From Candidatus Hydrogenedentota bacterium (GTDB lineage Bacteria > Hydrogenedentota > Hydrogenedentia > Hydrogenedentales > SLHB01): a stretch of DNA of 64,000 bases. Position 1 is the stretch's first letter. Every line of letters starts with the position of its first letter. Position numbers and translations under genes: made by a program. This document shows, one piece after another, positions 16,712-62,340 of this stretch. The notes beneath the pieces were generated by a model, which saw nothing but the letters and a program-made list of their open reading frames with translations, had not been told where the DNA came from and ran no database searches. The DNA lies in contig BTWA01000023.1 in the NCBI GenBank assembly GCA_045863295.1, forward strand, positions 1-64,000, written 5' to 3'.

Positions 16712-18289
16712 TCATTCGCGATCGTCCTCCATCTGGCTCTTGCTTTCAGATTGTGAGTGAATGGCATGCGGCCGACGTGTAGAAGCGATTTCCAACCGTT
16801 CTTGAATCGATTGCCCCTGCTTCGAGTCCGTTTTTGTCTCTACAGAAAACTCGTCTGGTTTGATTGCGCCACTTGTTGTCGGTTGTTGCGCTTGATCGTT
16901 GCATTGCGATTCAGGCGTGAAGCCGGTGCCCTGTGCGGGCAGGCCCACTCCACGCGGAAACGCCTCCGGCTGTACTTTGCCGTCTTTGATGGCTTGTTCG
17001 TACGTGGTAAGGATTTCAGACAGGGGATCCTGGGTTGGGGGTGTTTGGTTGGGCGTGCGCTTTTCATCACTCCGAGTCAAGGATGGAGCGGGTCTTGTTG
17101 ATTTCTTGTTTGCTCGGTAGCAGGCGAGGATGTGGTCTCGGTGGCTTTGGGCGTAGGGTTGGTCGAGGAGGGTGGCGTTGTCGAAGGCTTGGCACATTTC
17201 GATGTCGCGGCCTTGGCCGGCGGCTTGGATGGCTTGTTGGATGTAGGCTTTGGCGTGGGTCTGGGGGGATTGGGGCGGGAGTTGGAGGGCTTGGAGTGTG
17301 GCGGGGTCGAGGCTGGTGTCGTGTTGCATGCGGTGGGCGTGGCGGAGGATGCCTTCGGGGGTTGGGGGTGCGGGGGTGTGTTTTTGACGGTTCAAGGGGG
17401 TATGGGCTGGGGCGTGGAGGGTGCGGAGGGAGGCCCTAAGTTCGCGCATGAGACGGACATAGGCGGTGATCATGGCGGGGGTGTCGGGGGACCATGGGGT
17501 GGCGGCGTTTGCGACAGTGGTGGCGGCGGCGTTGGCGAGGACTTGGAGCATGGCGACGTTGTGGGCGGTGTGGAGTCCCATGGGGTTGGGGTGGGGCTGG
17601 GTTTCGACGACGGCGAGGGCGTCGGTGAGGACGGTGTTGTATTCGAGGCGTTGGTAGGGGCAGGGGGCTTCGCCAGGCTGTAGACTGTAGGCTGCAGGCT
17701 GTAGGGGGGATGGGGATGGGAAGGACTGCAAGGACATTCTGGACGGATCCTCCTTCGCTGAAGCTACGGAGGACAGGCCCTCCTTCGCTGAAGCTTCCTC
17801 CTTCGTTAAAACTACGGAGGATGAGTCGGGGGACCAGATGGGGCCCTCCTTCGCCGAGGCTTCCTCCTTCGTTAAAACTACGGAGGACGAGACGGCGGCG
17901 TGGGGGCAGGTTTGGTGGTGGGGGCAGGTGGTGGTGCAGGTTTTTAGGCGGCGGGAGTAGAGGCCGTGGATGGTGTGGTTGCGGTTGCCTTTGGGGGCGC
18001 CGGTTTGGTTGAAGCCGCCGTGGTGGGGGCAGCGGCCTGAGGGGTGGTTGGAGGGGTTGGTGCAGGGGGTGGCTTCCTCCTTCGCTGAAGCTACGGAGGA
18101 CGAGCCCTCCTTCGCTGACGCTTCCTCCTTCGTTAAAACTACGGAGGACGAGTCGGAGGAGGGGGCGGGGGTGCGGGCGCCGCAGATTCGGTGGTTTAGT
18201 TGTTTTTCTTTGGCTTCGACTATGGCGATCCATTCTGGGGTCCAGGATCGGGCGCAGGGGGTGCCGAGGGTGGTGGTATGGGTAGGCAT
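16712..18289 (-). CDS. HGGxSTG-domain-like (phage small-terminase-like) protein interrupted in frame by repeat elements
   Basis: 'ICGART...TPC...GRCPHHGG...GAPKGNRNHTIHG' zinc-knuckle signature; AAGGA RBS upstream; the SSVVLTKEE and SSVASAKE(E) peptides are encoded by DNA palindromes. Confidence 0.6.
   Translation of the reverse strand: MPTHTTTLGTPCARSWTPEWIAIVEAKEKQLNHRICGARTPAPSSDSSSVVLTKEEASAKEGSSSVASAKEEATPCTNPSNHPSGRCPHHGGFNQTGAPKGNRNHTIHGLYSRRLKTCTTTCPHHQTCPHAAVSSSVVLTKEEASAKEGPIWSPDSSSVVLTKEEASAKEGLSSVASAKEDPSRMSLQSFPSPSPLQPAAYSLQPGEAPCPYQRLEYNTVLTDALAVVETQPHPNPMGLHTAHNVAMLQVLANAAATTVANAATPWSPDTPAMITAYVRLMRELRASLRTLHAPAHTPLNRQKHTPAPPTPEGILRHAHRMQHDTSLDPATLQALQLPPQSPQTHAKAYIQQAIQAAGQGRDIEMCQAFDNATLLDQPYAQSHRDHILACYRANKKSTRPAPSLTRSDEKRTPNQTPPTQDPLSEILTTYEQAIKDGKVQPEAFPRGVGLPAQGTGFTPESQCNDQAQQPTTSGAIKPDEFSVETKTDSKQGQSIQERLEIASTRRPHAIHSQSESKSQMEDDRE
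17675..17705. repeat. Heptamer tandem repeat (AGRCTGY x4)
   Basis: aggctgt agactgt aggctgc aggctgt agg. Confidence 0.7.
17748..17898. repeat. Cluster of five 30-bp palindromic elements, including two nested pairs
   Basis: Units at 17748-17777, outer 17778 with inner 17796-17825, and outer 17844 with inner 17862-17891; consensus TCCTCCTTCGYTRAARCTACGGAGGAYGAG. Confidence 0.92.
18075..18160. repeat. Cluster of three 30-bp palindromic elements, including one nested pair
   Basis: Unit at 18075-18104; outer 18105-18160 with inner 18123-18152. Confidence 0.92.
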
Positions 18290-40583: not shown

Positions 40584-43500
40584 CTAAGTGTTTGACTCTT
40601 GATTTGCTGGTGAACGGCATTTCCTGAGATCAACACGAAATGTCCGTGCGTCGAGTGAATCGTCTGGAATTTCGCAATATCGAGTAATCGTAACTTCATT
40701 GGCATCGTCAGCCGATAGATGTTCGACGTTCCACAATTCCCAGCGGTATGACCGCTTTTGGAGATACTCCTTGTACTGCCTGCTTGTAATCTCAACAATG
40801 GTCGCGCGGCCTGTGTGTGTTTTTACCTCTACGCGAAGTTCTTCGCCGTTCCCAAATGCCCGAAGGTCAAAGCCGGGATTCAATTGTGACATCTTTTCCA
40901 CCGAATAGCCAAAGTCGTGCAGTGCTTTTTCGGCAAAACATCGGCCCGCTTCCTCCAACTCGGCTTTTTCCTGTTCCGTAAGCACAGATCCCTCATGTTC
41001 AGTTCGTGCACCTCCTGCGCCGCCGCTACCGAGCGAGGGTTGTGCCTCTTGATGATTCGCTAATTCGTATTGGGACGCGCTGGGATCCTTGAGCCGGAGA
41101 GGCCGCTTCGCAGACGAACTCGGTCCAGTTGACCCACCAGGCCCGCCGTCATTTTGGCCTCGTACAGAGAATTCGTCTTGCGTAGGTTTCGTGCCACCAC
41201 CGAAAAGTGGTTTTCCAACATCATTGCTTGAATTCTTCTCGCTGTTCCCCTGCGCCTGCGAATGCGCTTGGGCGGCGTTACTGACTGAGGCCCCTCCGAC
41301 TGATTCATCGCGTCCATCCTCATGATCTTCATCGAAGACGCGTCCGCCATAATCGCGGAGGCGGCTCTCCACCTCGGCGGCAGCAATGCCTTTACTTACA
41401 AGCTTCTCCATGCGCTGCGCGTCGCTGTTGCAGCGAAGGAGGTTCTCGTAAAAGTCAGCTTCCGACTTGGCGTCAACGAATTTCGCTACGGCTTGTCCCA
41501 ATTCTACTTCGTTCGCATGGTCTGCATGGATGTATATCTTATCTTCGTTTACATGCCAGCGTCGCGGGACCTCGCGCTGCGCGTTCTCCAGAGTCAATTT
41601 CGCGTTCAGCGTCGCCACAACTACACCATTTAATTCCTGTAGGCGAGCCGATAGATTCTCAGTAATCTGCTTGCTCCGCGTTGACCTCCAGGCATATACG
41701 TACCCCAAGGACTCTCTTAATCGCACCTGCAACTCTTCCGGGAGGCTGGACTCCTGAACCTCCATATTAACTTGTTCTTCGACTGACTCAGCGAGAGACA
41801 AGACATCGAAGTACTTCTTAGCAGCAGAACGCGAGTTAGAACTGATATGGAAAAGCCATACGTCATGCGCAAATGCGTTTACTAATGTGTTGTCATCGTC
41901 AAGATATCGCCGTTCCTTTGCAACGTACTTCCATGAGTCTCCCTTGCGGCAAAGTAGTGGACACGATGCGAAAGCACCGGGTAAGAGGTTCTCATCATTG
42001 ACTACCTCTTCGAGGCACGCAGTATACCATTTTACTATTCTGTCACGGACTTGTTCGTCCGATGCAACGCGATCGATCGGGGCCATTTCCGGTATGCGAT
42101 TCGACAGTATGGCTTTCCAATCATCTAGAGTTGTTTCACCGATTCGCTTACGAAGAGGGTGAGGAACGTCATTGCTAAGCCAGTTACGGACAACATTCTC
42201 GTCTTCGCCAAAAACACTAAGATCAATGACGGGAAGAAGATCCCCAATTGATTGCTGAGTTCGCTTGTCAGGAATCCAGTGTGAGGTGAGCGGAATGTGA
42301 TCCCTACGGTCATCACGCCTCGGTATAGGAAGTCTCTCGCAGACATCCCACCACCACTTTGCATTGACTTGCCATTGCCTGTAGTTCTGCTCCCTGCCTT
42401 TAGACCCCTTAGCCTTGATCTCTATATAGTTGCAATAGTACCTTGCCCAGTGCCTTGCTAGCAGACGGATTACCAATGTTGCCTTGCCCAGGTCGAGGCT
42501 AGCCAATGATAGCCTATCCAGATTGGTTACGCAGGCAACCCGGGCAACAAACCGCCCCTCATTGTCTTGCACAGTACTGAGGTAACTCTTCCACTCCCCG
42601 CAGTCCTCGGGTAACTGCCGAATGGCGGTCTCTTGGCGTTCCTCCACAACACGGGGATAGTCAGTGACGCCGAGCCAATTCAAGACTTGACGCTGCTGCT
42701 CCCTTTCATCTCCTAAACCATCGAAAGCGACCCAAGCCATGCCCTCCACTTCAGCGTAAAGTCTCTCTAAGAGTTCGTTTTCCCAGTCACGCCCGAAGTA
42801 AGCCAATCTCGCCTCACACCACATATTTTCTTCCACTAGCTGCGAAAGCGGGACGGGACATCGTTTTAGAGCCTCTGTCGCCTCCAATGTCTCATGCCAG
42901 TCCTGCTCAAGAATGAAACGAAGAAACCGCCCCGGATCGCCACGTTTGTCTTTCCAGTACTGCACGATTGCCTGGCCGACAGCACGCTGTATAACATTGT
43001 CGTCCGGCCCGTCGATGCCCAACTCTTTACAGAGTTTCTTGACAGGATGGTCCAGCTCGGTCAAACTCCGGATTCTGTCTCGGAACCAGTCTTTCACGAA
43101 AACCAGCGGCAGCCAATCGGGTAGACAGTCCACCCCAGCTTTCGGTGTCCATGTCACAATACGACCTGCGAGATCTGCACCTTTCAGCAGCTTACCGTCG
43201 ACAGGCACAACGGGTAACTTTTTAACATCCGCCACGCGCTTCTTATGTTCATCTCCGTAAGGCCTTTCCGCGACCCAGGCACTAAGCCACTCCCAACAAG
43301 TCCAGATCCATTCTGGGTCATCGATGTGCGAGTTGGCATTCTTACCGATGGCTGTCAACAACTCCTGATCGGCGATACTCTTACAGCCCAACTCCCTGAG
43401 CGCCTCTCGTGCTTCTATATTCTCGTCAAAGGTGGAATGCAGCAATTCTCCTCGGGCATCGGTGGCATCGAGCAAGGTCCGCCCCAAGTCGGAGTGCACG

Positions 43501-44732
43501 CTAACCGAGATCAGTCTAGCTTTGTCAATGGACAGGTGCTGGTTGCCGTCGACGTCGGCGAGTCGGAGGTCCGTAATCGCCTTTTCTGCAATGCGTTGCC
43601 AGAGATCTCGGGCGACTGGGTGGGAGTCCCTGCCATCGAACGGAGCTAGAAGCGCCACATGACTACTCGGCGCTTCGGGGCGGTACATAGCGTTCACAAA
43701 CTTGCAAACGTGGGAAGCAAGTCTGTCCGCAACCCATGCATTAAAGGGGCTGCCATCGAAGTGTATGAGGGCGGTTCGGTCACTCTTGACGAAGAATTCG
43801 GCATGAAGGAGCAGGCGTAACGGACCTTTCTGCTCCGTGGGGTAGAAAACGTGTATGGGAAGGTAGTCGGTTGTCGGTACAAAACTACCGTCCTCACGTG
43901 GTGTGGCAATAAGAAAGCTCACGCCACCCGAAGAGATGCCACTGCGCTCATCACCACTCAAATTCTTTAGCAGGTCGCCTGGTGGAATTTCAGCATATCT
44001 ATAGACCTGCCACTCATTCGGAGTAACCCCTCGGGTGTCGCTTATCGACCATACCCCGTTTCCCTCAGTTAGGATAATCTCCAGTTCAGGTGCTTCTATT
44101 CGTCGTACGTTTCGAAAGGCAAAAAGAGAATGAGGGGGCCACTCTTTAAGTAGTTGCCCCGCAGCCCGCATCTTTTCCGCCTGAATGCCACGAAGGACAA
44201 CAACTGTTTTGCAGCTGGAGAACGTCTCGAGATCGGAGTCGAGTTCTAGCGCCTTATCCCACAAGATAGGGAATGGAATCCATTGATAGGGTACATGCTC
44301 ACCATCGAATCCATTCGATTTCAGCCAGTCTTTGGCCTTACATACGTCGAACTCAATACCTTCTCCATTCACAGTGAGCACTTGGGGGTTGCGGGATACG
44401 TCGTAGACCGACTTAAATCCCACGCCTTTACGACCGATCATTCCGGCAGACTTATCCGAATAGTCGGTGCCGCAAATGGCGCTCACAGCTGAAGGGCAAA
44501 GACCTACTCCACTATCCGCCACGTATATGGCGTTGTTATTGAAGTGTATTCGAACTTCCGTGGCCTTGGCGTCATCGCAATTCTGTAGAAGTTCGAACAA
44601 CCATCGTCCTACGTGGTCTTTGGTCGCACGTTCTGCACTCCGCGCATCACGCACAATCTGCCCCGCATCGACCTTATAGACATCGAGGCGTTTCTCTCGG
44701 AAATATTCTATTGCGTCCCATATAGCACCCAT
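40584..44732 (-). CDS. Sacsin-like N-terminal GHKL ATPase + C-terminal DUF3883 (PD-(D/E)xK) nuclease-like protein, lower GC
   Basis: 'ELLQNCDDA', 'DSGVG', 'GRKGVGFKSV'; C-terminal 'NPGFDL...VEVK...ITSRQY'. Confidence 0.85.
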   Translation of the reverse strand: MGAIWDAIEYFREKRLDVYKVDAGQIVRDARSAERATKDHVGRWLFELLQNCDDAKATEVRIHFNNNAIYVADSGVGLCPSAVSAICGTDYSDKSAGMIGRKGVGFKSVYDVSRNPQVLTVNGEGIEFDVCKAKDWLKSNGFDGEHVPYQWIPFPILWDKALELDSDLETFSSCKTVVVLRGIQAEKMRAAGQLLKEWPPHSLFAFRNVRRIEAPELEIILTEGNGVWSISDTRGVTPNEWQVYRYAEIPPGDLLKNLSGDERSGISSGGVSFLIATPREDGSFVPTTDYLPIHVFYPTEQKGPLRLLLHAEFFVKSDRTALIHFDGSPFNAWVADRLASHVCKFVNAMYRPEAPSSHVALLAPFDGRDSHPVARDLWQRIAEKAITDLRLADVDGNQHLSIDKARLISVSVHSDLGRTLLDATDARGELLHSTFDENIEAREALRELGCKSIADQELLTAIGKNANSHIDDPEWIWTCWEWLSAWVAERPYGDEHKKRVADVKKLPVVPVDGKLLKGADLAGRIVTWTPKAGVDCLPDWLPLVFVKDWFRDRIRSLTELDHPVKKLCKELGIDGPDDNVIQRAVGQAIVQYWKDKRGDPGRFLRFILEQDWHETLEATEALKRCPVPLSQLVEENMWCEARLAYFGRDWENELLERLYAEVEGMAWVAFDGLGDEREQQRQVLNWLGVTDYPRVVEERQETAIRQLPEDCGEWKSYLSTVQDNEGRFVARVACVTNLDRLSLASLDLGKATLVIRLLARHWARYYCNYIEIKAKGSKGREQNYRQWQVNAKWWWDVCERLPIPRRDDRRDHIPLTSHWIPDKRTQQSIGDLLPVIDLSVFGEDENVVRNWLSNDVPHPLRKRIGETTLDDWKAILSNRIPEMAPIDRVASDEQVRDRIVKWYTACLEEVVNDENLLPGAFASCPLLCRKGDSWKYVAKERRYLDDDNTLVNAFAHDVWLFHISSNSRSAAKKYFDVLSLAESVEEQVNMEVQESSLPEELQVRLRESLGYVYAWRSTRSKQITENLSARLQELNGVVVATLNAKLTLENAQREVPRRWHVNEDKIYIHADHANEVELGQAVAKFVDAKSEADFYENLLRCNSDAQRMEKLVSKGIAAAEVESRLRDYGGRVFDEDHEDGRDESVGGASVSNAAQAHSQAQGNSEKNSSNDVGKPLFGGGTKPTQDEFSVRGQNDGGPGGSTGPSSSAKRPLRLKDPSASQYELANHQEAQPSLGSGGAGGARTEHEGSVLTEQEKAELEEAGRCFAEKALHDFGYSVEKMSQLNPGFDLRAFGNGEELRVEVKTHTGRATIVEITSRQYKEYLQKRSYRWELWNVEHLSADDANEVTITRYCEIPDDSLDARTFRVDLRKCRSPANQESNT

Positions 44733-44929
44733 AATTAATCTCGTGCCCTCTTTGTCGCATCAACAGCGAAGCCACCACCCAGAATCAGCATCACATTATA
44801 AGTTCTCACCAACACTTGTGCATACTTCACCTGTCTCCTGGAAGTGAGACGCATCAAGGCAGATTATTTCTAAATAGATTCGTTACTTAAGCTGATGTGA
44901 GTATCTTAGCAAGAACATCTATTTCCGAT

Positions 44930-45060
44930 TCATCCTACCGCAAACGCGTGCCCTGAAGCGGATTTAAGTTAACGCTCGAAGTCCACCGCTTTGTCCTTGC
45001 ATTGTCTCAAGTCTTGAGTCACGGTGAGGCAGAATTTGGACATGACGCAATTCCCCTTTT
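44930..45060 (-). pseudogene. Decayed GIY-YIG nuclease gene fragment
   Basis: Minus strand 44998-44930 translates as KDKAVDFER*LKSASGHAFAVG*, against KEKAVAFERYFKSGSGHAFANK in the intact gene at 46074-46316. Confidence 0.8.
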
Positions 45061-45068
45061 ATTTTCGC

Positions 45069-45113
45069 CTCATTCTTCGCTCCCTTCTTCAACAAGGCTA
45101 TTAAGGGCGGGAA
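45069..45113. repeat. Degenerate nested 30-bp palindromic element
   Basis: ...TTCTTCGCT[CCCTTCTTCAACAAGGCTATTAAGGGCGGG]AA has the same junctions as the copies at 46407 and 46563. Confidence 0.8.
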
Positions 45114-45231
45114 CCAATTGGCCGATAATGAAGTAGGATACCGCCAGACATCCGGCGGGGTCCGGCCACCATGGTCATGCCAGTCGCCGATGGGAGAATG
45201 ACCCCGGATACCTGGTAACGAAAGGCGCCCC

Positions 45232-46005
45232 ATGCATCTTGAGCCCATTGGAACATTCCACTGCGAGGCGCAGTACCCTTACGACGCCGCGCGGCAGCCG
45301 GCTATGGCAGAGCCAACGGGTGGGCATATCGTGTTGGAAAAAGGCCACAACTACGAGCAAGCGTTGCAGGATATCGAGCGCTTCTCGCATATCTGGCTAC
45401 TTTACGTCTTTCACCACAACCCGCATTGGAAGCCCATGGTCCGGCCACCACGCGCGTCCAGCAAGGTGGGCGTCTTCGCCAGCTGCGCGCCCTACCGTCC
45501 CAACCCCCTTGGCCTCTCCTGCGTGGAACTGATCGCAGTCCAAGGCCTGATCTTAACTGTTGGTCCGCACGACCTCCTCGACGGTACGCCCATCCTTGAC
45601 ATAAAGCCCTACCTTCCCTATGCCGACAGTGTTCCCGAAGCGACGTGCGGCTGGGTCGAGGAGGTGGCAGAGGACGCGTGGGAAGTGTGTTTTGCCTTGG
45701 AAGCCGAGCGGCAACTCGCTTGGCTGGAACGAGCAGGGGTTCAGGCAATCCGCGCGTTCCTGCGTCAGCAACTCAGCGAACTCCCCTTCGACCAACAGCG
45801 CAAACGCATCCGGCCGCTAGCCGGCGCACAGTGGGAAATCGCGTACCGCACATGGCGGATCGAGTACGGCGTAGACGAAGCGGCGAGGAAGGTGGTGGTA
45901 CAGCAGGTTCGCTCCGCATACACCGAAGAGGACTTGCTGAGCGTGGAAGATAGATACCAGGACAAGGCGGCGCACCGGGCGTTTCGCAACGCATTTCGCA
46001 CGTGA
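45232..46005 (+). CDS. trmO: tRNA (t6A37-N6)-methyltransferase TrmO/TsaA
   Basis: 'FSHIWLLYVFH', 'VRPPR', 'GVFA...PYRPNPLGLS', 'DLLDGTPILDIKPY'. Confidence 0.92.
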   Translation: MHLEPIGTFHCEAQYPYDAARQPAMAEPTGGHIVLEKGHNYEQALQDIERFSHIWLLYVFHHNPHWKPMVRPPRASSKVGVFASCAPYRPNPLGLSCVELIAVQGLILTVGPHDLLDGTPILDIKPYLPYADSVPEATCGWVEEVAEDAWEVCFALEAERQLAWLERAGVQAIRAFLRQQLSELPFDQQRKRIRPLAGAQWEIAYRTWRIEYGVDEAARKVVVQQVRSAYTEEDLLSVEDRYQDKAAHRAFRNAFRT

Positions 46006-46006
46006 A

Positions 46007-46062
46007 CCCTTCTTCGCCGAGGCTTCGAAGGGCATGCCCTTCATAGCCTTGGCGAAGAAGGG
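46007..46062. repeat. Inverted doublet of the palindromic element (REPIN/BIME-like)
   Basis: CCCTTCTTCGCCGAGGCTTCGAAGGGC (46007-46033) and an inverted copy at 46036-46062 (rc CCCTTCTTCGCCAAGGCTATGAAGGGC). Confidence 0.9.
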
Positions 46063-46073
46063 CGTGCCTTTGC

Positions 46074-46316
46074 CTACCAAAGCCGCTTGTTCGCGAATGC
46101 ATGCCCCGAACCGGATTTGAAGTAGCGCTCGAAGGCTACCGCCTTCTCCTTATCCGAAATGGCAACGTAAGTAATCAACTGCCATGGGATGTACTTTGAA
46201 GTGTGAGACGAGCGGCCAGCGTTATGGTCGATAATGCGTTGCTCAAGATTGTCCGTAACCCCGGCATATCGCTGCTTGGGATTGGATTCGCTGACGATGA
46301 GGTAGACGTAGGTCAT
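46074..46316 (-). CDS. Stand-alone GIY-YIG nuclease (80 aa)
   Basis: 'YVY...YAG.T..L..R...HN.G...T', 'A..FE...K'; the catalytic Tyr/Arg/Glu pattern appears intact. Confidence 0.92.
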   Translation of the reverse strand: MTYVYLIVSESNPKQRYAGVTDNLEQRIIDHNAGRSSHTSKYIPWQLITYVAISDKEKAVAFERYFKSGSGHAFANKRLW

Positions 46317-46340
46317 GTATGATGTGGCCCCCCGATCATA

Positions 46341-46650
46341 CCCTACGTCGCCAAGGCTACATAGGGCATGAAGCTCGTTCACACAATAGACCGGCTCTTC
46401 TGCGCTCCCTTCTTCGCTGAAGCTACGAAGGGCGGGAATGCTATGAAGAGCACCACCATTCGGCTTACTCGCTACGCTCGAGCAAATCTAGCCTTCATCC
46501 TGCAAGAATTACCGGTTTGCCATCCGAAGCTCGTTCATACCAGCGACTGGCCCTTCTTCGCTCCCTTCTTCGCTTAAGCTACGAAGGGTGGGAAAGCTAC
46601 GAAGGGCACCATCCTTCGCTTAACTCGCTACGCTCGAGCGAAGGATGGTG
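46341..46650. repeat. Palindromic-element cluster: one single unit, then two 114-bp direct repeats each holding a nested pair, ending in a 14-bp hairpin
   Basis: Unit at 46341-46367; direct repeats 46370-46483 and 46526-46639; inner units 46407-46436 and 46563-46592; hairpin arms 46607-46620 and 46637-46650. Confidence 0.9.
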
Positions 46651-46667
46651 GAGGCGGCCGCAATTGA
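46646..46667 (-). other. 3'-end fragment of tmRNA (ssrA)/tRNA-like gene, probable att remnant
   Basis: Minus strand TCAATTGCGGCCGCCTCCACCA has a T-loop half, CGCCTCC acceptor strand and ACCA; the 5' T-stem and the rest of the gene are absent. Confidence 0.5.
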
Positions 46668-47113
46668 GGCCTGTGGAGACTAGTTTTGCAGGTCATTGCA
46701 CGCCTGCTATCTACAGTGCACCCAGTGATTCAACACGAATTGGGTTGGCCTCAGCTTTTATTACAATTTATCCGCAATTGCGCACGATTTTGCAGAAAAT
46801 TACTCCCGTTTTGCTACCCTGAAAGCAAGCGCTGACTGACGCGCAAAAGGCTTCCTCGCGAATTCTGATCCATGCAAACACGTTGACCCAAGCAATGTCC
46901 CGTTGGAACTTGGCCGGGTGGGGTAACGAGCACTCAGATTCAAGCCCCGTCCATTCCGTGCCCTAAGCGATGATCGCGAGTATCAGTAAACCAGGCGGCG
47001 CGCGCGACCTACTCGTTCTCTTCTCCCGATCCAGTTTCCGCGGGTTTCAAACAAAGGAGATTTGCCAACTGACCTGAATCCACTGTGGCGGCAATTGGAT
47101 TTGTATGTTCAGA

Positions 47114-48571
47114 TCACTTCCCTTCCGCCGCCCAAGCCTTCATTTGGGCGATGTTCTCCTGGAAAATCCGGGTGCGTTCCGGTTCCCCTTTTCGTGATTC
47201 GAGGTAAAGCGCCATATCGGCGTCGTAGACTGCTTCGGCTTCCGGCGTTTGGCCCTTGTCACCCGTCGCTCGGATCCATGTATCGAGGATGCCGCGCATC
47301 TCGACAAGCGTTTCCACATAGGCGGAATTATCGGCGAGATTATTCAGTTCCCAAGGGTCAGTCTTTCGGTCGTACAGCTCCTCCTTGGGCCGAGGTGTGA
47401 CGAACATGCTCTCCGCCGGATGGCCTGCCAGCTTGCCCTGCGCATACAACTCGCGCAGGCGGATCAAGGTCTCCTTGTCATCCTTGTAGGCGTTTGGCTG
47501 GAGGTGGGGTCGGTGGGTATAGAAATTCCGGATGTAGGTGTAGCGGCCTTTTCGGACGCTACGGAGGCGTTCCACCGTCTCGTCACATCTATCGCGCGCC
47601 GAGATCACGTAATCCCGGGGCCGGGCCTCCGGCCCGAAAAGTGGCCGGCTTTCCAAGTGCTTGGGGATCGGTATGCCGGCAAAATGCATGGACGTGGCGG
47701 CCATGTCGATGTGAGCCACCAAATCATGGCGCGTCGTCCCGCCGGGGACGCGACCGGGAGCCCAGACAATGAAGGGGATTCGCACACCCTCTTCATAAAC
47801 GAATTGCTTGCCCCGTGCGTGGGTGACACCGTGGTCGGTGATGAAGAGGACCACAGTGTTTTCCGCCAACCCCTCCATCTCCAAACGGGCCATAATCTCA
47901 CCCACTTCTCGATCGACGTTCAGGACGGAATTCAGGTACCGTGCCCAATCCTCCCGCATGACCGGATCGTCCGGATAATATGGCGGCAACGTAACCGTCT
48001 CCGGGGAGACTGGATTCTCCACAATCGCCCCGCGCCTCTTGCCACCGCGCAACTGGAACTGCATGAAGAAGGGCTGGTCCGGGTCACGTCCCGACCAATT
48101 GCTCCCGTCGTAGAGGTCGTCCGGGTAGTTGAAGTTGTAATCCGTCTTGCCCGGTTCGTCAGCGTCCGGCCCGGCGCCATTGCAGACATAATAACCGGCC
48201 TCTTTAAAGTACTCGGGAATCGTGCGCACGGGGGCGGGAAGGTCGTGCTTGATCTCCCCGCGGAAGCTTCGGTGGTTGTGCGCGCCGATGGTCGTCTGGT
48301 ACATGCCAGTAATCAGGGCCGACCGGCACGGCGAGCACACCGGACAGGTCACGTAGGCCGAGTCAAAAACCACCCCTTCCCGGGCCAATCGATCCACGTT
48401 TGGCGTCTTTATGGTGGTTTCGCCCTGGTAGCTGAAATGGCAGGACATGTCTTCCGCCACGATCCAGACGATGTTCGGGCGCTGTTGTTCCGCGGCCGCC
48501 CCGCCGGTCGTGCTGCTGAACAGAGACAATGCCCCCGCGCCGCTCGCTTTCAGGAATGATCTTCTACGCAT
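47114..48571 (-). CDS. Sulfatase, Tat-exported
   Basis: 'RRRSFLK', 'CSPCR', 'TDHG'. Confidence 0.93.
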
Positions 48572-48600
48572 GGTCCTTTGTTTCTCCTTGGGAACTTGCG

Positions 48601-50037
48601 TCACGCTTGCTGCCAGTGAGACTTCCATTGCTCCACGAGAGCCGTTGCGGTTTGGTCCCCTGCCTTCGTCGCCCACACCGTCATTCGGGCTGCCAGGTCG
48701 CGTGCCGCTGCAATCGTTTCAGATTTTCCAAACACGTTGTGTGTATCGGGATCCGGACTCTGACGGTCGTAGAGTTCTGGCGGCCGTGTTGTATTCAGGA
48801 TCAATTTCCATTCTTTGGTGACGACGCACCGCTCTCGCATGTCTGGGTCTTTTCCCTGCGGTTGTTTCTCACCTGAGCCTGTTTTGCCCGAGCCGGTATA
48901 GGGTAGGTTCTGGATGAGAGCGTCATCCCGCCATTGAGAGGCGTTCCCGGACAACAACGATTTCATCGTCTCTCCGTGGAGGCCGTCTGGGGGATTGATT
49001 CCGCATACGTCCAGAATGGTCGGACACAAATCGGCGATGCTGACCACGCTGTCTATGCGAACCCCCTCCGGGAGCGTCCCGGGCATGCTCATGAGGAGTG
49101 GCACATTAGCCGACTGATCATAGCAGAGCCGCTTGTAGTGATCGTTCCAGCGAAAAGGGAAATTCTCGCCGTGATCCGACGTAAATACAACCAGGGTATT
49201 CTCGCGCAATTCCAATTCGTCAAGGAGCGCGAGGAGCCTTCCGATATTCCAGTCCAATCGGTTCACCATAGCGTGATAAACCGCTTGATCATCCGGCTCA
49301 ATTACACCTCGGTAGATCGCGATGTTCTCTTCGGGAGCGTCTTTGGTGGTATGGGGGGGATAGAAAGAAAGCCAGCAAGCGAATTTGCGCTCTTTGTTCT
49401 TACGAATGAAGTCCAGGGCGTAATCGGTCTCCACATCGGGGCGGTACTTCCCGACGACGCTTTCCACTTCATTGGTCACGGTCGGATTGCCGGCGATTCG
49501 TTCCCTGAACTTGCTGTCCATCTCACCAGGCGCCGCGAAGAGGGGCTCTTCTTCAATCCAATGCGGCCAACCCGTGTGATACCCGCGCCACAGGTCAAAA
49601 TAATCAGGGACCGGCTCGACTCCCAAATGCCACTTGCCGATGTAGGCCGTCCTATATCCAGACTCACGCAGTGCGCGCGGCCACGCGAACAAGCCGGGCG
49701 GCAGCGGAATGTTGTTTTCCACCACAGTGGTCGCATTTGGGAACAGTCCGGTCACCATGCTGGATCGGCAAGGGGAACATACCGGCTGGGTCACGTAGCA
49801 CGAGGTGAAGAGCGCACCCCGTTTGGCCAGCGCATCCAAGTGTGGTGTCTGAACGCGATTGTTGCCATAGCAGCCGAGCGTATCCGTTCTCTGCTGGTCC
49901 GTGTTGATAAACACTACATTGGGCGCGGTGTCCGGCGTCTCGGGCTTTTCAAGTGCCTCTGCCTGCCGGCAAGATAGGCCCAGCAAAGTCGCGGTTGTTG
50001 ACCCCAAGAAATAGCGCCTGTTCAATTGAACATCCAT
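48601..50037 (-). CDS. Sulfatase, Tat-exported
   Basis: 'NRRYFL', 'TDQQR', 'CSPCR', 'GKWH', 'SDHG'. Confidence 0.93.
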
Positions 50038-50243
50038 TGCTTCAATCCCTCCAAGCCCAATATTATCTATTCGCCCCTTAGCATGCATTTATTGCTCGAA
50101 AGTGCGTTGGACCAGCGGAAGACCGGCTGGTCTGATACGCGAAATGGTCTCGTCTGAGCATAGGAAAAGTGATGAGCATGCGAGGCATGAAAAACAATAT
50201 CGCTTTGTCTTGCGCACGCAAAGCCATAACAAGGATAAACGAA

Positions 50244-51656
50244 ATGACGAACAAAGCTCTAACGCGTAGGGATTTCCTGGGGCTGTCCGCAGCGGCGGCC
50301 AATTTGGCCATTCCAACGCTTTATGGAGATGCCTCCGCCGGCTCAACAGGTGCGATTCAAAAACCAAATATCATATTCATCATGGCGGACGATTTGGGCT
50401 ATGCGGATCTGGGCTGTTATGGTCAGCCCAAAATAAAGACGCCGCATATCGACCGCCTGGCAGCCGAGGGGATGCGGTTCACGCATTGTTACGCGGGGGC
50501 GTCCGTGTGCGCGCCGAGCCGATCCGTGTTAATGACTGGTTTGCATGGCGGCCATACGACGGTACGCGACAATCATGGCGTAAACGCGCCCACACACGAT
50601 GGGGAAGAGGGCCGGATCCCTCTGAAAGAGGACGATGTGACCGTGGCCGAGGTGCTTAAAGAGGCAGGGTATGCCACGGGCATCACGGGCAAGTGGGGCC
50701 TGGGCGAGCCTGGCTCTACGGGCGTTCCAAATGATCAAGGATTTGATGAATGGTTCGGCTACCTGAATCAGTCTCATGCGGCCGACTATTTCACTGACCA
50801 CCTCTGGCGAAACAAGAACCTTCAAACCATTGAAGCAAACGAAGACGGGCGGCGCGGCGCTTATTCCTGCGATCTTTTTTCCGAATTCAGCCTGGACTTC
50901 ATCCGAAAGAACCAGGCGAATCCATTCTTCTTGTATGTGGCCACTACCATTCCCCACAAGAAGCTCGAGGTTCCGGACTTGGAAATCTACACGGAGAAGC
51001 CCTGGCCCGATGAAGCGAAGGTATTTGCGGCGATGGTCACCCGGATGGACACTCATGTGGGGCAGATCATGGACTTGCTCAAGGAACTCGGCCTCGACGA
51101 GAAAACGATTGTCTTCTTCACCTCCGACAACGGTTCGGCCGAGGGCTGGGAGGGGATGTTCGATAGTAGCGGCCCGCTGCGCGATAAGAAGTTCTCCCTC
51201 TACGAAGGAGGCATCCGCTGCCCCATGATTGCACGATGGCCCGGACGGATCCCCGCCGGCGAGGTGAGCGATGCTGTATGGCACTTCGCGGATATCCTGC
51301 CGACCGCCGCCACTCTCGCGGGCGCCCGCGTGCCGAACCGCGTGGACGGCACTAACGTGGCGCCCATTCTCCTTGGCGAAACGGATTCGTTACCCAATAG
51401 ATTCCTTTACTGGGAAAAGCATCGCGACGAACCTGTGCGGCTGGAACAGGCCGTACGCTGGGGCGATTGGAAGGGCATCCGGCTCGGCCTCGACAAGCCT
51501 CTGGAATTGTACAATCTGAAAGATGACATTGCTGAAGAGAACGATGTGTCGTCAAGGCATCCCGATATCGTGTCACATATCGAAAGCTACCTCAATACGG
51601 CCCGGACGCCGTCACCGTATTGGCCTGTGCCGAACGAAACGAAGGAACATCCATGA
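50244..51656 (+). CDS. Arylsulfatase-family sulfatase, Tat-exported
   Basis: 'TRRDFL', 'ADDLG', 'CAPSR', 'SDNG', 'YEGGIR.P'. Confidence 0.93.
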   Translation: MTNKALTRRDFLGLSAAAANLAIPTLYGDASAGSTGAIQKPNIIFIMADDLGYADLGCYGQPKIKTPHIDRLAAEGMRFTHCYAGASVCAPSRSVLMTGLHGGHTTVRDNHGVNAPTHDGEEGRIPLKEDDVTVAEVLKEAGYATGITGKWGLGEPGSTGVPNDQGFDEWFGYLNQSHAADYFTDHLWRNKNLQTIEANEDGRRGAYSCDLFSEFSLDFIRKNQANPFFLYVATTIPHKKLEVPDLEIYTEKPWPDEAKVFAAMVTRMDTHVGQIMDLLKELGLDEKTIVFFTSDNGSAEGWEGMFDSSGPLRDKKFSLYEGGIRCPMIARWPGRIPAGEVSDAVWHFADILPTAATLAGARVPNRVDGTNVAPILLGETDSLPNRFLYWEKHRDEPVRLEQAVRWGDWKGIRLGLDKPLELYNLKDDIAEENDVSSRHPDIVSHIESYLNTARTPSPYWPVPNETKEHP

Positions 51657-51868
51657 CGAACAACATGCGCAATTTCGTCTTCTTCTTCGGAGAGAATTTG
51701 GGCAGGTAAACGTTGCGGTTCACGAGATTTTCAGGCGTGAAAACACCCCAAGCTGAATAGAGGCTGCGTTACCGAACGAGGTATGCCATTCCGTCGTTGG
51801 GTGTAGAAATTATTGCATAGAGCCAATCATCGCTTTTGGTGCACTCCACACCGCCGCCCTTCGCGATT

Positions 51869-53368
51869 TCATTCCGTGTCGAGGTCGGGATTTCGGACAT
51901 CATCCAGCGCAATGGGAACACGCTGATTGACACTGCGCGGGACCACGCGGAAACTGCGAACAACAAGACCGTCAACATGGCGCGCAAAAAGGGCGTACGC
52001 TGGCAAATCGCCAAAGTTGTTGAATTCGGGATAGCCGTCTTCAAGTTCAGGAATGGGCGATTGGATGTTGAGAACTTCCGGAGCTTCCCGGTAAGAGACA
52101 TCAAAGTTCTCAAGACGCACATTACGGATAAGAAGGCCGGGAATGCCGCTTACGATTGCAGGCGACTCCACGTTGTAGGCGGTAACATCCGATACAGTGA
52201 TGTCTTCCAACTTGCCCATTCTGTTTTTGGTGTCCCATCGGTTGCGATTTCCCAGGCGTATGAACAGGGGTGTCATGACGTTTCGGGCTTTGATTCCTTT
52301 GACAGTCACCTTGCTCACGTGCGCGCCGTCGACACTCTCGATGGCTACGGCAGACAGCGACCAAGGCCAGACTTCCTCCGTGAAGAGTTCGCAGTCGGAG
52401 ATATGAACATTGGAAATGTCTGCCCACGTTTCAGTGCCTATCTTTATGCCGTTTGCGGCACTTCGGATCGCACAATCACGCACCTGGACGTTTTCCATAG
52501 GCCGGCTCTTATCTCCATTGAAACCGTTCTTGAGCACGATGCCATCGTCGCCTGTCGAAATGAAACAGTGGGAAACCAGCACGTTACTTGAAGCAACGAT
52601 GTCAATGCCGTCCGTATTCTCGCCGTGGTAATTGTTGTTGATCACCACGTTTTCTACGTTGACCCGGTCGCACAAATGCAGCAAGAGCGTCCAACCAGGG
52701 GAGTTTTCGATAATCAAGTTATCCAGGCGAATATCCGCCGATTCCTGAAACCGGATCAATGGCGATATACGGTACTCCTTCTTCTTGCGTTTGGCATGGC
52801 CGTGCATACGCATCGTTTCGCTCAGATTGAAGGGCTCAGGCGGCGTCACAGGGGGGTGGGCGCGAGGGGGCTGCCACCAGCTGTGGCCATCCCCCGCAAT
52901 CCTTCCGGGGCCCTTAATTCGGACGTTGTGGGAGTCCTCGCAATAGATGAAATGCATTGGATCGTAATGCGCGCGGTCCTGGCTGGCTCTTAAAACGGCA
53001 TTTTTCGCAATGTGCAGCGTGACATTACTCTTAAGGAGAACGGTGCCGCTGACAAAATCTCCCCCCGCAACGCTGACCGTGCCTCCCCCGGCGCGGTGCG
53101 CTGCAAGAATCGCATCATTGATAGCTGTCGTATTGATGGACTTGCCATCACCGACCGCGCCAAAATCTCTAATGTCGTATACTTTGTCATGCAACGTATC
53201 GTCATCAAAGTCAATATACAAATCGTAGGGAACATGGCTCAGAAACTCGCCGGGGGACGGGGTGAAAGGGGGCGTGACCTGGGCGTTGCTTTCTCGCCAA
53301 ACGGAAATTGCAAGAAGACATAGCATGGTAGCCATACAACGCCTCTGTATGAGAATAAGGCTTTGCAT
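51869..53368 (-). CDS. Glycoside hydrolase family 28 (polygalacturonase-like) protein
   Basis: 'DFGAVGDG', 'NTDGID', 'GDDGI.LK', 'IKIG'. Confidence 0.9.
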   Translation of the reverse strand: MQSLILIQRRCMATMLCLLAISVWRESNAQVTPPFTPSPGEFLSHVPYDLYIDFDDDTLHDKVYDIRDFGAVGDGKSINTTAINDAILAAHRAGGGTVSVAGGDFVSGTVLLKSNVTLHIAKNAVLRASQDRAHYDPMHFIYCEDSHNVRIKGPGRIAGDGHSWWQPPRAHPPVTPPEPFNLSETMRMHGHAKRKKKEYRISPLIRFQESADIRLDNLIIENSPGWTLLLHLCDRVNVENVVINNNYHGENTDGIDIVASSNVLVSHCFISTGDDGIVLKNGFNGDKSRPMENVQVRDCAIRSAANGIKIGTETWADISNVHISDCELFTEEVWPWSLSAVAIESVDGAHVSKVTVKGIKARNVMTPLFIRLGNRNRWDTKNRMGKLEDITVSDVTAYNVESPAIVSGIPGLLIRNVRLENFDVSYREAPEVLNIQSPIPELEDGYPEFNNFGDLPAYALFARHVDGLVVRSFRVVPRSVNQRVPIALDDVRNPDLDTE

Positions 53369-54153
53369 TGATATACCTTTCGAGAATTGTCCCCACTAGG
53401 ATTTTTCGTACTCACTTCGCGGTCACGTTGGTCAATAATACATCGCTAAAGGCGGTCGATACATTATCGCGCCGTCGACAGAGGGTCTCGAAGTGGTTTA
53501 ACACGGCCTAGAACAGATCTTCGGCAATCCAAGCCGCCGGCCTCTTGTTTGCGTTTTTGGTCGCATTGTTGGTGGCAGGGTAGCGCAAATAGCGCTGAGC
53601 TGGGTTCGGTATACACAGACGCCGCCGCCTACACTGCTCAATCCAACGCCAAGGGTTTAACAGGGCGGACAGAATGCGTCAGGGCCTCTCCCAGTTCGAT
53701 GCCCACTACTCCAGGGAGCGCAATCATCAAGGTCTCGGAAATCGTCTCACTACACCGGGCGAGGAACTCGGCTGCACCGAAGGTCAAATCGCTTGCCGTA
53801 ATCTCATCAGCGGTAGGCTCCGCTACTACTACCCGCAGGCACCATGCTCGCCCCTCCTCGCGCTTTCTGTTTCATAAGCGAACGATGCCTACGCCATGCG
53901 TCCAATGGCAGCGGCGCAAACGCACCAAATCACGATCGAGTAACAAGCCAACAATCGGCCTTAGGCGGTCCGTCTCACAAGGCTGTGATCATCGACTGAA
54001 ATTACTTGCCATACATCTTGCTCAAACCACTCCAGAACGCGTACATTATTCTCTGCGGACGCTACACCTTTACACCCCCCCGCGTCACTTTTGGGCCGCT
54101 ATTAACAGATTGACATCTCGTCGACGGGGTGCAACAACCAGAGGTCTCAGCCA

Positions 54154-55788
54154 GTGCATAAATCCTCAGCGCTCTCAAGAAGGCAATTCGTTGCGCTGGG
54201 CGCGGGACTCGCGGCGGGCGCCGTAACTACGGGCGCGAAAGAGCCTTCCCCACTGAAAACAGCCGACGTGTGCGTGTACGGCGCAACGGCAAGCGGAATT
54301 ATGGCGGCCCTCGCGGCATCGCGGGAAGGTTGCACGGTCATCGTGGTAGAGCCCAGCCGCTGGCTCGGCGGCATGACTGGGGGCGGCATCAGCAAGATTG
54401 ACTGGGGACGCGAGGAGGCTGTCGGGGGCACAGCGCGCACCATTCTCGAGCATCAATACAACAACGCCCAGTACCGCGACGCATTTCAGGCGCTTGTGGC
54501 GGAGCACGGCATAGAGGTTGTCTTCGAGCACCGTCTCAATTCCGTTCGCCGCGACGGCGCGCGCATTACACAAATCACGTTCGATTATGCGCCTCCCGAT
54601 AAGCTCGGCTGTCCCCCGCCGCTGCCGAAAGAACGCGAATCCGCTGTGGTGCAGGCATCCGTATTTATTGACTGCTCCTACGAAGGCGACGTGATGGCGG
54701 CGAGCGGGGTCGACTACACATACGGGCGCGAGTCAGTTGAACAATATGGCGAATCCCTGGCGGGCGTGCGGCCGAATCTGTGGGTATACGACATCGATCC
54801 CTATGTGCGGCCGGGCGAGCCCGCGAGCGGCCTGCTGCCCTGTATTCAGGATCGCGAAATGCCCCCCCTTGGCGCCGCCGACAAACTCACCATGGGCTAC
54901 TGCTTTCGCTACAAGCTTGACCTTTCAGGCAAAGGCTTGCCCATCGAGCCCACGGATACCTATGACCCTGCTCAGTTCGAGGTCTATCGCAGGGGGCTTG
55001 CGCAGGGCATGGATCTGCAGCGCTCGCGCAAGATGCCGCGCCTCGGCGAGATTGTCGAGGGCAATGGCCATGTCTACAGGGAGGGGCAGGGGAACACGTA
55101 TCGGGCCTTGTTGACGACTACGGTTTTCGGTAGCAATGCCGAGTATCCCGACGGGAATTGGGAGACGCGCGCGCGAATCTGGAAGTTTCACCAGGACTTC
55201 TTCCGGAACCTCACCCAATTCCTGCGAACCGATCCAGTCGTGCCTGAAGCGCTGAAAGAGCTGGCTTTGCGCGCGTCGTTTCAACGCGGCATCTTCGACG
55301 ATACGCAGGGCTGGCCGCATCAGCTGTACGTGCGCGAGGCGCGGCGCATGGTTTCCGAATACGTTGTTGCGCAGAAGGACCTCGAAGGCAAAACCGACCC
55401 CGAGCGCTCAATCGGCCTGGCATCGTACGGCGTAGATGACTGGCCCTACGCAACCATCGCCGTCGACGGCAAGGTGGCCTTTAGCGGCGGCGAGTTTTCC
55501 ATTCTCTATCTGGACGAGAAGCACAGGGGCATCTACAAGATTCCCTACGACGCGATCACGCCCCGGCGCGGTCAATGCGAAAACCTGCTTGTGCCTGTCT
55601 GCTGCTCCGCGAGCCATATTGCGATGACTTCCCTGCGCATGGAACCGGTCTGGATGATTCTCGGTGAATCAGCGGGCGTGGCGGCGGCCCTTGCATCGCG
55701 CGAGCGCATGAGTGTGCAAGACGTTTCCTACAGCACGCTGCGCGAAAAGCTGCTCGCGCTGGGACAATGGCTCGAGCGTCCGGCGTAG
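54154..55788 (+). CDS. FAD-dependent oxidoreductase, Tat-exported
   Basis: 'SRRQF', 'VYGATASG', 'LGGMTGGG', 'IDCSYEGD', 'YVREARR', 'SLRMEP'. Confidence 0.88.
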   Translation: MHKSSALSRRQFVALGAGLAAGAVTTGAKEPSPLKTADVCVYGATASGIMAALAASREGCTVIVVEPSRWLGGMTGGGISKIDWGREEAVGGTARTILEHQYNNAQYRDAFQALVAEHGIEVVFEHRLNSVRRDGARITQITFDYAPPDKLGCPPPLPKERESAVVQASVFIDCSYEGDVMAASGVDYTYGRESVEQYGESLAGVRPNLWVYDIDPYVRPGEPASGLLPCIQDREMPPLGAADKLTMGYCFRYKLDLSGKGLPIEPTDTYDPAQFEVYRRGLAQGMDLQRSRKMPRLGEIVEGNGHVYREGQGNTYRALLTTTVFGSNAEYPDGNWETRARIWKFHQDFFRNLTQFLRTDPVVPEALKELALRASFQRGIFDDTQGWPHQLYVREARRMVSEYVVAQKDLEGKTDPERSIGLASYGVDDWPYATIAVDGKVAFSGGEFSILYLDEKHRGIYKIPYDAITPRRGQCENLLVPVCCSASHIAMTSLRMEPVWMILGESAGVAAALASRERMSVQDVSYSTLREKLLALGQWLERPA

Positions 55789-55834
55789 AAAAGCAAGGAT
55801 CCCATCCTGTGGCAGGAAATTGAAAGGAGAAGCC

Positions 55835-57319: not shown

Positions 57320-57433
57320 AGGGGGACCTGGCAAGGGCTGGATTCGAACCCGCGAAGTTCGGTACTTGCACAGCAAGGTCGAAAGCTATGAAGCAAGTAC
57401 CTATCCGCGAATATATCACCGGTCCGACGGTGG

Positions 57434-58957: not shown

Positions 58958-59456
58958 CGGCAATAACTCCTTAGTTCGAAAAAGAACATTTTCAAGGATG
59001 TGAGAGACCGTTTCCAGCATCACGCAATCAAGACAGACATTGGTAATCCTGCAGAAAGGAACGACCTCCTGACGTCGCAGTATACTTTCGCTGACACGGG
59101 GTTTCGAGCGTCCACGTCTGTCGTTCGCGTTCATTTGTACGCGACGACGGTTTTCGGAAGCAATGCGGATGTATCCCGGCGGGAATTGGGACACGCGTTT
59201 TTCATTCCGTCTCAATGGTTTACAGTGCACGCCCCTAATCCCACATGAGTTGGATTTGACTCAGGGTTTATTACGATTCATCGCGAGGACGCAAGATTTT
59301 TTGGAGAGTTGCTTCCGCTTTGTTCCGCGAAAGTCGGCGCTGACAACGGGCAAATCGGACGTTCGCAGGTGATTCTCTTGGTCAGCGCGCTCACCGAAGT
59401 AACGTAGTATCGGGGTGCTGCTGGGCGGCGCAGGAACGATTCTGACTGAAGTAGCG

Positions 59457-60407: not shown

Positions 60408-60419
60408 GATATACGGTCC

Positions 60420-60698
60420 TTATCGTATGGTGCGCCCGTGATGTGACCCTGCGTCTCGCGTGTCCGTGGCGCAAACAACCTCAGCTTGGCCGCAGCTCAT
60501 GCCCAACTCGATACGTCCCCGGTCAGCAAGCCACGCAAGCGTTGCGGCGCAGTCTGCTCGGGACAATCCAAGGCATGAGCACAGGTCCACAGTCGAGGTC
60601 GCCCGGTGCTCTCGCAGGAATTGGTCAACTGTGATTGCCACTTCAAACAATGACTGTTCCACTGGTTGGCTCCTTGTTTCGAAAAGGTCACTGCACAT
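60420..60698 (-). CDS. Small hypothetical protein, possibly winged-helix
   Basis: Fills the gap between co-oriented genes; 'DLCSCLGLSRADCAATLAWLADRGRI' resembles a wHTH; start uncertain. Confidence 0.45.
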   Translation of the reverse strand: MCSDLFETRSQPVEQSLFEVAITVDQFLREHRATSTVDLCSCLGLSRADCAATLAWLADRGRIELGMSCGQAEVVCATDTRDAGSHHGRTIR

Positions 60699-60739
60699 TA
60701 CAGACACGCAAATGAATTCTGATGTAAGCGGACCATGCC

Positions 60740-62308: not shown

Positions 62309-62340
62309 GACAGTATCCCTTTCGTTCTTGATCGCGGAAT

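Follow-up and report, generated by a model that had tools for sequence, protein, structure and literature searches.

An 80-residue SLX1-like GIY-YIG nuclease gene with a hairpin leader at tRNA and tmRNA 3' ends, and a candidate mobile, self-nesting 30-bp unit

A stand-alone GIY-YIG nuclease gene of 80 codons, found with a group of palindromes in a 64,000-nucleotide stretch of Candidatus Hydrogenedentota DNA (contig BTWA01000023.1; hereafter the window), belongs to a small cassette that starts at the 3' CCA end of a tRNA or tmRNA gene. The preliminary description of this DNA had missed that anchor. Comparison of the window with homologous loci, related genomes and metagenomes leads us to favor, with moderate confidence, a selfish nuclease-hairpin cassette that resides at tRNA ends and is accompanied by a free, self-nesting 30-bp unit.

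The hairpin copies, both nested 30-bp units and the nuclease gene had been placed correctly in the preliminary description (Table 1). The six copies of the hairpin family lie at 45082, 46007, ~46036 (inverted), 46341, 46407 and 46563. A search of both strands from 45000 to 46700 with up to four mismatches gave seven consensus matches, whereas 300 dinucleotide shuffles gave none. The strict pattern has nine occurrences in the 6.3-Mb genome, all of them within the window, four at the gene and five at 17748–18148. Both the unit at 46407–46436 and that at 46563–46592 are 30 nt long and preceded by GCT, and excision of 30 bp does restore an outer copy, as had been claimed: the flanks minus the unit form a hairpin of 28 nt whose outer stem has 7 bp. 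Both nested units are spanned, with zero differences, by contigs of two other studies, so the nesting is no assembly error. Because both nested pairs sit inside one duplication with a period of 156 nt (46370–46486 and 46526–46642, 85% identity), they may derive from a single insertion. Contigs from 4 of the 24 listed runs contained no joint skipping a unit, a result that is uninformative since contigs drop rare variants, and the exact nested pattern of the window had no match in viral contigs. Scans found no tRNA genes in the window, no promoter or terminator in 45900–47100, and no Rfam family in 44700–47200, where the single hit was at chance level (E 0.21). A second cassette, in decay, lies at 44939–45111. 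Adjoining it is a gene (40584–44732, minus strand) for a 1382-aa sacsin-like ATPase with a C-terminal NOV domain, possibly defense-related.

Table 1 Features of the nuclease cassette and of the 30-bp units in the window.
Feature	Position	Strand	Support
13-nt copy of tmRNA 3' end, ending in CCA; cassette left border, att-like	46646..46658	-	Final 13 nt of the genome's tmRNA are identical
14-bp inverted repeat starting within the tmRNA-end copy; contains left arm of leader hairpin A	46607..46650	-	Layout shared by homologous loci
Outer hairpin B, split by nested unit	46550..46607	+	Unsplit in relative G008
Nested 30-bp unit after GCT	46563..46592	+	Exact 30-column gap versus orthologous G008 cassette; bridged by independent contig
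Hairpin A right arm and TGGC tail able to pair with CCA	46519..46532	-	Aligned with relative
Second outer hairpin, with changes on both sides of its stem and a nested unit splitting it; within the 156-nt-period duplication	46394..46451	+	
Nested 30-bp unit after GCT	46407..46436	+	Fold of flanks; independent contig
Gene-proximal hairpin, usual family orientation	46340..46367	-	Orientation shared by 55 of 64 gene-proximal hairpins
Stand-alone GIY-YIG nuclease gene, 80 aa, SLX1-like fold, Y5/Y17/R27/H31/E63 intact	46074..46316	-	
Inverted hairpin doublet immediately 3' of nuclease gene; unusual (downstream match in 1 of 80 homologues)	46007..46062	.	
trmO (tsaA), bystander between cassette and decayed second copy	45232..46005	+	Related strain has trmO with unrelated flanks
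Diverged 30-bp unit (45082–45111) after GCT and half outer arm; leader of decayed second cassette	45073..45111	+	
Second GIY-YIG gene remnant, one stop	44939..44998	-	75% identical over 20 residues
In-frame group of three 30-bp units in ORF 16712–18289 (-), one of them nested after GCT	18075..18164	+	30 extra residues versus 7 of 7 aligned homologues
Five further 30-bp units, two nested after GCT, in variable linker of ORF 16712–18289 (-)	17748..17903	+	

The product of the nuclease gene belongs to the GIY-YIG superfamily (Pfam PF01541, E 1.7e-14), and we take its CDD label to be cd10449 (SLX1-like). Residues Y17, R27, H31 and E63 are present in 66 of 66 homologues and Y5 in 64 of 66, and near-length homologues are mostly 80 aa long as well. 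A structure model (pLDDT 90) found its top matches in HIGLE and SLX1 (TM 0.73), with I-TevI far lower. The protein was also compared with four Ssn stand-ins, namely three NTS-adjacent proteins from viral contigs and one relative rather than SsnA itself; the best blastp match reached E 3.7e-8 over 64 residues, short of the E < 1e-10 and 75% coverage of SsnA used for the SsnA clade. The stand-ins form a separate branch (support 100/100), and the 80-aa protein is without the C-terminal extension seen in the NTS-adjacent proteins. The SRM consensus was found within 500 nt of none of 80 homologous loci (best 80 of 94), nor of the window gene. The genome encodes a second small GIY-YIG protein of a different clade (G000:C17:35005-35350, L082/L401; 84 aa, 31% identical), whose gene runs into an apparent decayed tRNA-Asn broken by other GC hairpins, and similar layouts occur at L245, L248 and L250. 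At L017 (2700–2740) a left-arm-like sequence lies in the last nuclease codons, which encode a highly conserved C-terminal helix; this may be chance.

The general layout of the cassette was derived from the best 80 of 94 homologous loci in species-representative genomes. By record titles, these come from Alphaproteobacteria, Verrucomicrobia, Deltaproteobacteria, Nitrospirales, Patescibacteria and others; many of the loci are kin (particularly from Mesorhizobium), so the counts do not represent independent events. With a structural hairpin model, 64 of these 80 loci gave a match in the 400 nt upstream of the gene, compared with a mean of 0.15 in shuffled sequences, which supports the suggestion that the repeat is enriched next to this GIY-YIG clade. 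Hairpin density was 3.7 per kb within 400 nt upstream versus 0.035 per kb beyond 1 kb. Downstream of the gene a hairpin was found at only 1 of the 80 loci. A gene flanked on both sides, as first described for the window, is therefore not the family layout; the hairpins form an upstream leader between the tRNA CCA end and the gene.

At 55 of the best 80 loci, the 500 nt upstream contain the end of a tRNA or tmRNA gene on the same strand, and each of the 64 tRNA calls shares the strand of the nuclease gene. The first hairpin arm begins no more than 6 nt from the tRNA or tmRNA 3' end in 53 of the 55. Nine classes of anchor are represented (Ser 32, Leu 6, Val 6, tmRNA 3, Gly 2, Tyr 2, Ala 2, Glu 1 and Pro 1). 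Another 13 of the best 80 loci have a CCA fragment and an arm, and at 12 both tRNA and CCA fragment are absent. Usually, CCA is followed in order by hairpin A with its tail, a short spacer, an inverted half copy, hairpin B and the start codon. A TGGC tail is present at 11 of the 55 tRNA-anchored loci and is fixed in all 11, five of which are at tRNAs with a non-pairing discriminator base. The left end of the cassette is exact; no conserved right end was seen in the displayed loci or filled sites, nor was a copy of the tRNA end seen by eye at the far border, either within 110 nt after the gene in the displayed loci or in filled sites. With the nuclease as its only gene, the cassette differs from integrative islands, which have their own integrase and a duplicated tRNA end. 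At L045, L055 and L062, hairpin A or the 3' end of the gene is repeated after the stop codon, suggesting tandem cassettes.

The cassette in the window borders on a copy of the tmRNA end, and two 23-nt copies in the same orientation lie further along the contig (G000:C23 73420 and 93510). The genome's tmRNA gene is directly followed by a gene for a 391-aa tyrosine integrase (G000:C19:312-1888). Islands integrating at the tmRNA probably moved the window cassette away from it at a later time; no overlap was found between the ends of the tmRNA contig and the window contig, which cannot be joined, so this link to islands is drawn from the att array only. The array itself suggests tandem islands, probably covering 46659–64000 of the window and beyond. 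In a genome of the same family (G008, protein 70% identical), the same cassette lies immediately after an intact tmRNA, and its hairpin B is short by exactly the 30 nt that are nested in the window. The G008 cassette is thus an empty allele for the unit, and the precise 30-bp presence/absence sought at an orthologous locus does exist.

Empty sites were also found for the cassette as a whole. Brevundimonas (25 loci fetched, 41 genomes searched) provided 20 evaluable loci, of which 17 were empty, one contained hairpins only and two were full, including the query. Sinorhizobium (25 loci, 31 genomes searched) provided 12, with 11 empty and the query filled; in the non-evaluable loci of both genera the tRNA or the anchor was missing from the DNA compared. 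In a Sinorhizobium relative (G082:C1:680531-687776), the nuclease gene has the same downstream anchor but is ~6 kb away from the tRNA, and is probably part of another cassette displaced by an island. The cassette thus has an observed architecture, borders, empty sites, a patchy spread and an intact active site, and we consider it very probable that it is mobile and targeted to tRNA genes.

Insertions of the 30-bp unit are found within coding sequences as well. ORF 16712–18289 (minus strand) contains eight units, and the three at 18075–18164 account for exactly 30 residues that are extra relative to 7 of 7 aligned homologues (chosen from 150 listed). This 3 × 30-nt gap and the gap in G008 bear out the earlier claim of a mobile unit that inserts precisely and for which alleles with an empty site exist. 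The ORF encodes a protein of 525 aa that has 169 relatives and no Pfam match. Its N-terminal domain is conserved and rich in Cys and His, and presumably resembles those of HGGxSTG type. Elsewhere, a unit lies in frame within a Pfam-matched stretch at 10 loci (127 frames scanned, 91 of 134 loci). Alignments to solved IleRS, RecR and HisH place gaps of 8, 11 and 7–10 residues at the unit, sizes that are approximate because the homologues are distant. At L238, where two copies stand in tandem, a 33-nt unit follows GCT in just one of them.

A metagenome scan yielded at least 120 distinct copies of the 30-mer in unrelated flanks. Among the matches listed, GCT precedes the unit at 20 of 120 junctions relative to a background of 1.6%, so a junction after GCT, although true of both nested units in the window, is not a strict rule. 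The two bases before the unit at these 120 listed junctions include CT (28), CA (18), GA (17) and AA (11); C at -2 was found in 58 of 121 and A or T at -1 in 93 of 121 among the matches listed. The target is a loose C[A/T] (CCA, GCA, GCT), compatible with the CCA of tRNA. Exact duplications of at least 4 nt flank 5 of 121 copies among the matches listed versus 1 of 242 controls, and near-duplications of at least 5 nt were found at 15 of 121 versus 5 of 242. The reported lack of target duplication therefore applies to both window junctions and is not absolute across the family. A strong preference for hairpin targets was considered and rejected, as structured targets (52 of 121 among the matches listed, versus 35% in local controls) showed no significant excess (MFE p = 0.18).

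The unit has a fixed length and a conserved stem with changes on both sides, as at stem pairs 2, 3 and 6, where C-G, G-C and T-A exchange. In 39 viral copies whose tail was unconstrained, C occupies +1 in 35 and G occupies +4 in 28; the commonest tails are CAAG (7), CAGG (6) and CGCG (5). Self-nesting at nt 18 was detected in 7 of 170 copies compared with 26 of 74,824 control positions, and it reaches a depth of four levels at L539. Dispersed copies are mostly single within the loci compared, with doublets in the leader and at 46007–46062. We have little doubt that the 30-mer is mobile on its own. Copies also occur inside other palindrome families, including NTS/SRM-like and TIR-like ones (L390, L315, L321, L373, L343, L253, L270, L272, L276, L280 and L541–L543). 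In viral contigs (L414, L223, L419, L438, L226, L429 and L431) many copies come right after TGA, frequently as part of ATGA or GTGA, where a stop codon may overlap a start codon.

The alternative that survives best, though we judge it unlikely, combines a SegB-like free-standing homing endonuclease that cuts dsDNA at tRNA 3' ends, hairpins that are an RNA leader or by-product, and a 30-mer generated by enzyme-independent template switching at stalled forks. T4 SegB is indeed a GIY-YIG enzyme that recognizes the tRNA T-arm and homes (PMC2330249, in the part available). Hairpin-rich genomes without the nuclease gene occur, and at L060 perfect fold-back palindromes take in the tRNA end. The protein, however, has 80 aa and no DNA-binding domain, its fold is like that of the structure-specific SLX1 with I-TevI far down the list, and an intact tRNA end in every host would be a target for a dsDNA cutter. 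As for template switching, copies do lie in simple repeats and in other palindromes, but slippage would not readily yield one fixed 30-nt length and a conserved tail in unrelated flanks.

The distribution of hairpin and nuclease among relatives of the host is uneven. Among 108 genomes, the strict hairpin was found in 12, the nuclease clade in 8 and both in 5. The preliminary description had expected repeat-rich genomes to carry the nuclease, an expectation partly contradicted by the 7 of 12 hairpin-bearing relatives, the repeat-richest included, in which none was found. Two such genomes are G138 (19 copies, 93% complete) and G011 (8 copies, 98% complete), the latter with a sole GIY-YIG frame of UvrC size. 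Hairpins in G138, which has no detected nuclease of the clade, include tandem arrays with a 40-nt period (L534, L535). Copies away from the gene were present in 4 of 8 nuclease-bearing versus 7 of 100 other genomes, an excess among genomes that are kin and draft assemblies. Among the metagenome matches listed, 1 of 120 30-mer loci had the nuclease within the surrounding 0.6–1 kb. Gene loss, transfer of marked DNA or another enzyme could account for hairpins without the nuclease.

An HUH transposase (RAYT/IS200-type) that moves the 30-mer in trans as a REP-like unit, with the GIY-YIG gene as passenger of one hairpin-bounded unit, seems to us improbable. RAYTs cleave at CT, the dinucleotide before 28 of the 120 junctions among the matches listed, and an HUH enzyme would be able to rejoin DNA. 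No RAYT is present at the locus, as previously stated, but five Y1-transposase genes lie elsewhere in the genome, and Y1 genes occur in all five genomes tested. The hairpin with its tetranucleotide and the inverted doublets resemble REP/REPIN (PMC3116915, as far as available), and copies are found nested within inverted repeats matching GGGGWSAS, a motif of tyrosine-transposase TIRs (PMC3733652, likewise). On the other hand, the hairpin was found at 0 of 28 Y1 loci in these five genomes (~1.5 kb, three mismatches allowed), in line with the expectation that no RAYT carries these flanks; a GTAG or CGTC tag is absent, and the hairpin tracks the GIY-YIG gene across phyla.

Slightly less probable again is a domesticated host module, in which the hairpins control processing or read-through of tRNA transcripts, the nuclease restricts incoming ssDNA or guards the tRNA att site, and dispersed copies amount to neutral debris. 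In its favor, SsnA reduces transformation with NTS-bearing DNA (PMC11893778, in the part available), the leader can pair with CCA and fold alternatively, and the site is an integration hotspot. Against it, a selfish element suits the patchy presence, the empty orthologous sites, the decay of second copies and the derivatives that consist of hairpins only, and the three att-like copies demonstrate island integration at this site.

We hypothesize, for the selfish cassette, that an element of ~330–600 bp, composed of the hairpin leader and the 80-aa SLX1-like GIY-YIG gene, would insert exactly after the CCA of tRNA and tmRNA genes and on their strand, and so could ride their transcription. The hairpin and its 4-nt tail (30 bp, or ~33 in the leader variant) would act as a free non-autonomous unit that inserts without regular target duplication and prefers C[A/T] (CCA, GCA, GCT); such a unit could therefore insert into its own arms and other hairpins, and into genes without breaking the frame. 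The nuclease would bind the hairpin once it has folded, either in a single strand or in a cruciform, and nick its 5' foot, as SsnA does beside NTS. Recognition of the hairpin by this nuclease is probable, and we infer that the nuclease may carry out cutting and mobilization. A GIY-YIG hydrolase cannot rejoin DNA, so host repair synthesis, primed by short homology, would have to copy the element in. Homology could be supplied by shared tRNA ends and by the unit's own arms, and such repair would explain why the cassette targets CCA, the unit nests in itself, regular duplications are missing and the right end is ragged. Capture of CCA could be assisted by the fixed TGGC arm found at 11 of 55 loci. 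The prevalence of C at +1 (35 of 39 copies) parallels the critical C after the NTS palindrome (PMC11893778, in the part available). It is conceivable, though we put it forward tentatively, that the cassette is among the smallest autonomous bacterial elements: a lone SLX1-like nuclease of 80 residues that, lacking an integrase, transposase or reverse transcriptase, targets any tRNA CCA end with the aid of an anti-CCA arm and sheds a self-nesting 30-bp unit adding 10-residue inserts to proteins (IleRS, RecR, HisH).

The spread of hairpins by small GIY-YIG nucleases has been only a hypothesis of Chenal et al. 2025 (PMC11893778, in the part available), and the exact empty and filled alleles, the defined 30-bp unit, its junction preference and the defined cassette target are the previously missing pieces for it. 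How REP-like repeats move without a transposase is an old question that can now be tested directly, given the 80-aa protein and a handful of oligonucleotides. The unit also accounts for a 10-residue insert that recurs in metagenome proteins, and the system may yield a new hairpin-specific ssDNA nuclease. If the proposed mechanism is true, precise spread of REP-like repeats would for the first time be directly attributable to a GIY-YIG hydrolase. No description of the hairpin, its peptides or a GIY-YIG cassette at tRNA ends was found in the literature, with subscription papers outside the scope of the search.

Very short palindromic units with in-frame insertions in genes have precedents. The Rickettsia palindromic elements are of this kind, and the small dispersed repeats of Nostoc (Elhai et al. 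2008) are reportedly so too. We know of no cognate GIY-YIG gene or tRNA anchoring for either, and the likeness drawn here is one of description. Phage T4 SegB resembles the cassette in being a free-standing GIY-YIG gene that spreads at tRNA genes, and the available part of PMC2330249 describes dsDNA cleavage at a 27-bp site in phage tRNA clusters without mention of a hairpin partner; unlike SegB, the 80-aa protein is too small for a DNA-binding domain. With REP/REPIN-RAYT systems the cassette shares a hairpin and 4-nt tag, copies in genes and clustering at the cognate enzyme gene (PMC3116915, PMC3733652, both as far as available), and inverted doublets may be a further likeness. It differs from them in that the cognate gene encodes a hydrolytic GIY-YIG enzyme instead of an HUH transposase, GTAG and CGTC tags are absent, sharp-ended singlets are common, and the enzyme cassette is patchy and tRNA-targeted.

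The analogy of a GIY-YIG system to REP/RAYT, drawn in the preliminary description, holds insofar as the hairpin is tied to this clade, but it had already been published for the sister clade Ssn/SRM, whose authors propose an IS200/RAYT-like mobile origin (PMC11893778). The available part of that source contains no description of the present clade, which its supplements could show as an SRM-negative branch; nor does it report a tRNA link or empty and filled alleles for Ssn. SsnA cuts 5' of NTS and needs a C after the palindrome (PMC11893778, in the same part). Like Ssn (SsnA, CDD cd10448), the cassette joins a small single-domain GIY-YIG gene to its own 28–30-nt hairpin, conserves C right after the stem and has the same kinds of catalytic residues; at 80 aa the protein is within the Ssn size range (single-domain GIY-YIG, <150 aa). 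Compared with Ssn as described in the part available, it belongs to another clade without the C-terminal extension, its hairpin has a 3x3 internal loop and no CGTC tag, its leader is upstream only, and it inserts at tRNA CCA ends with precise empty and filled alleles. Judged from sequence, the cassette thus appears to work like the Ssn/SRM pairs, yet to stand outside them as a separate SLX1-like clade without the SRM motif.
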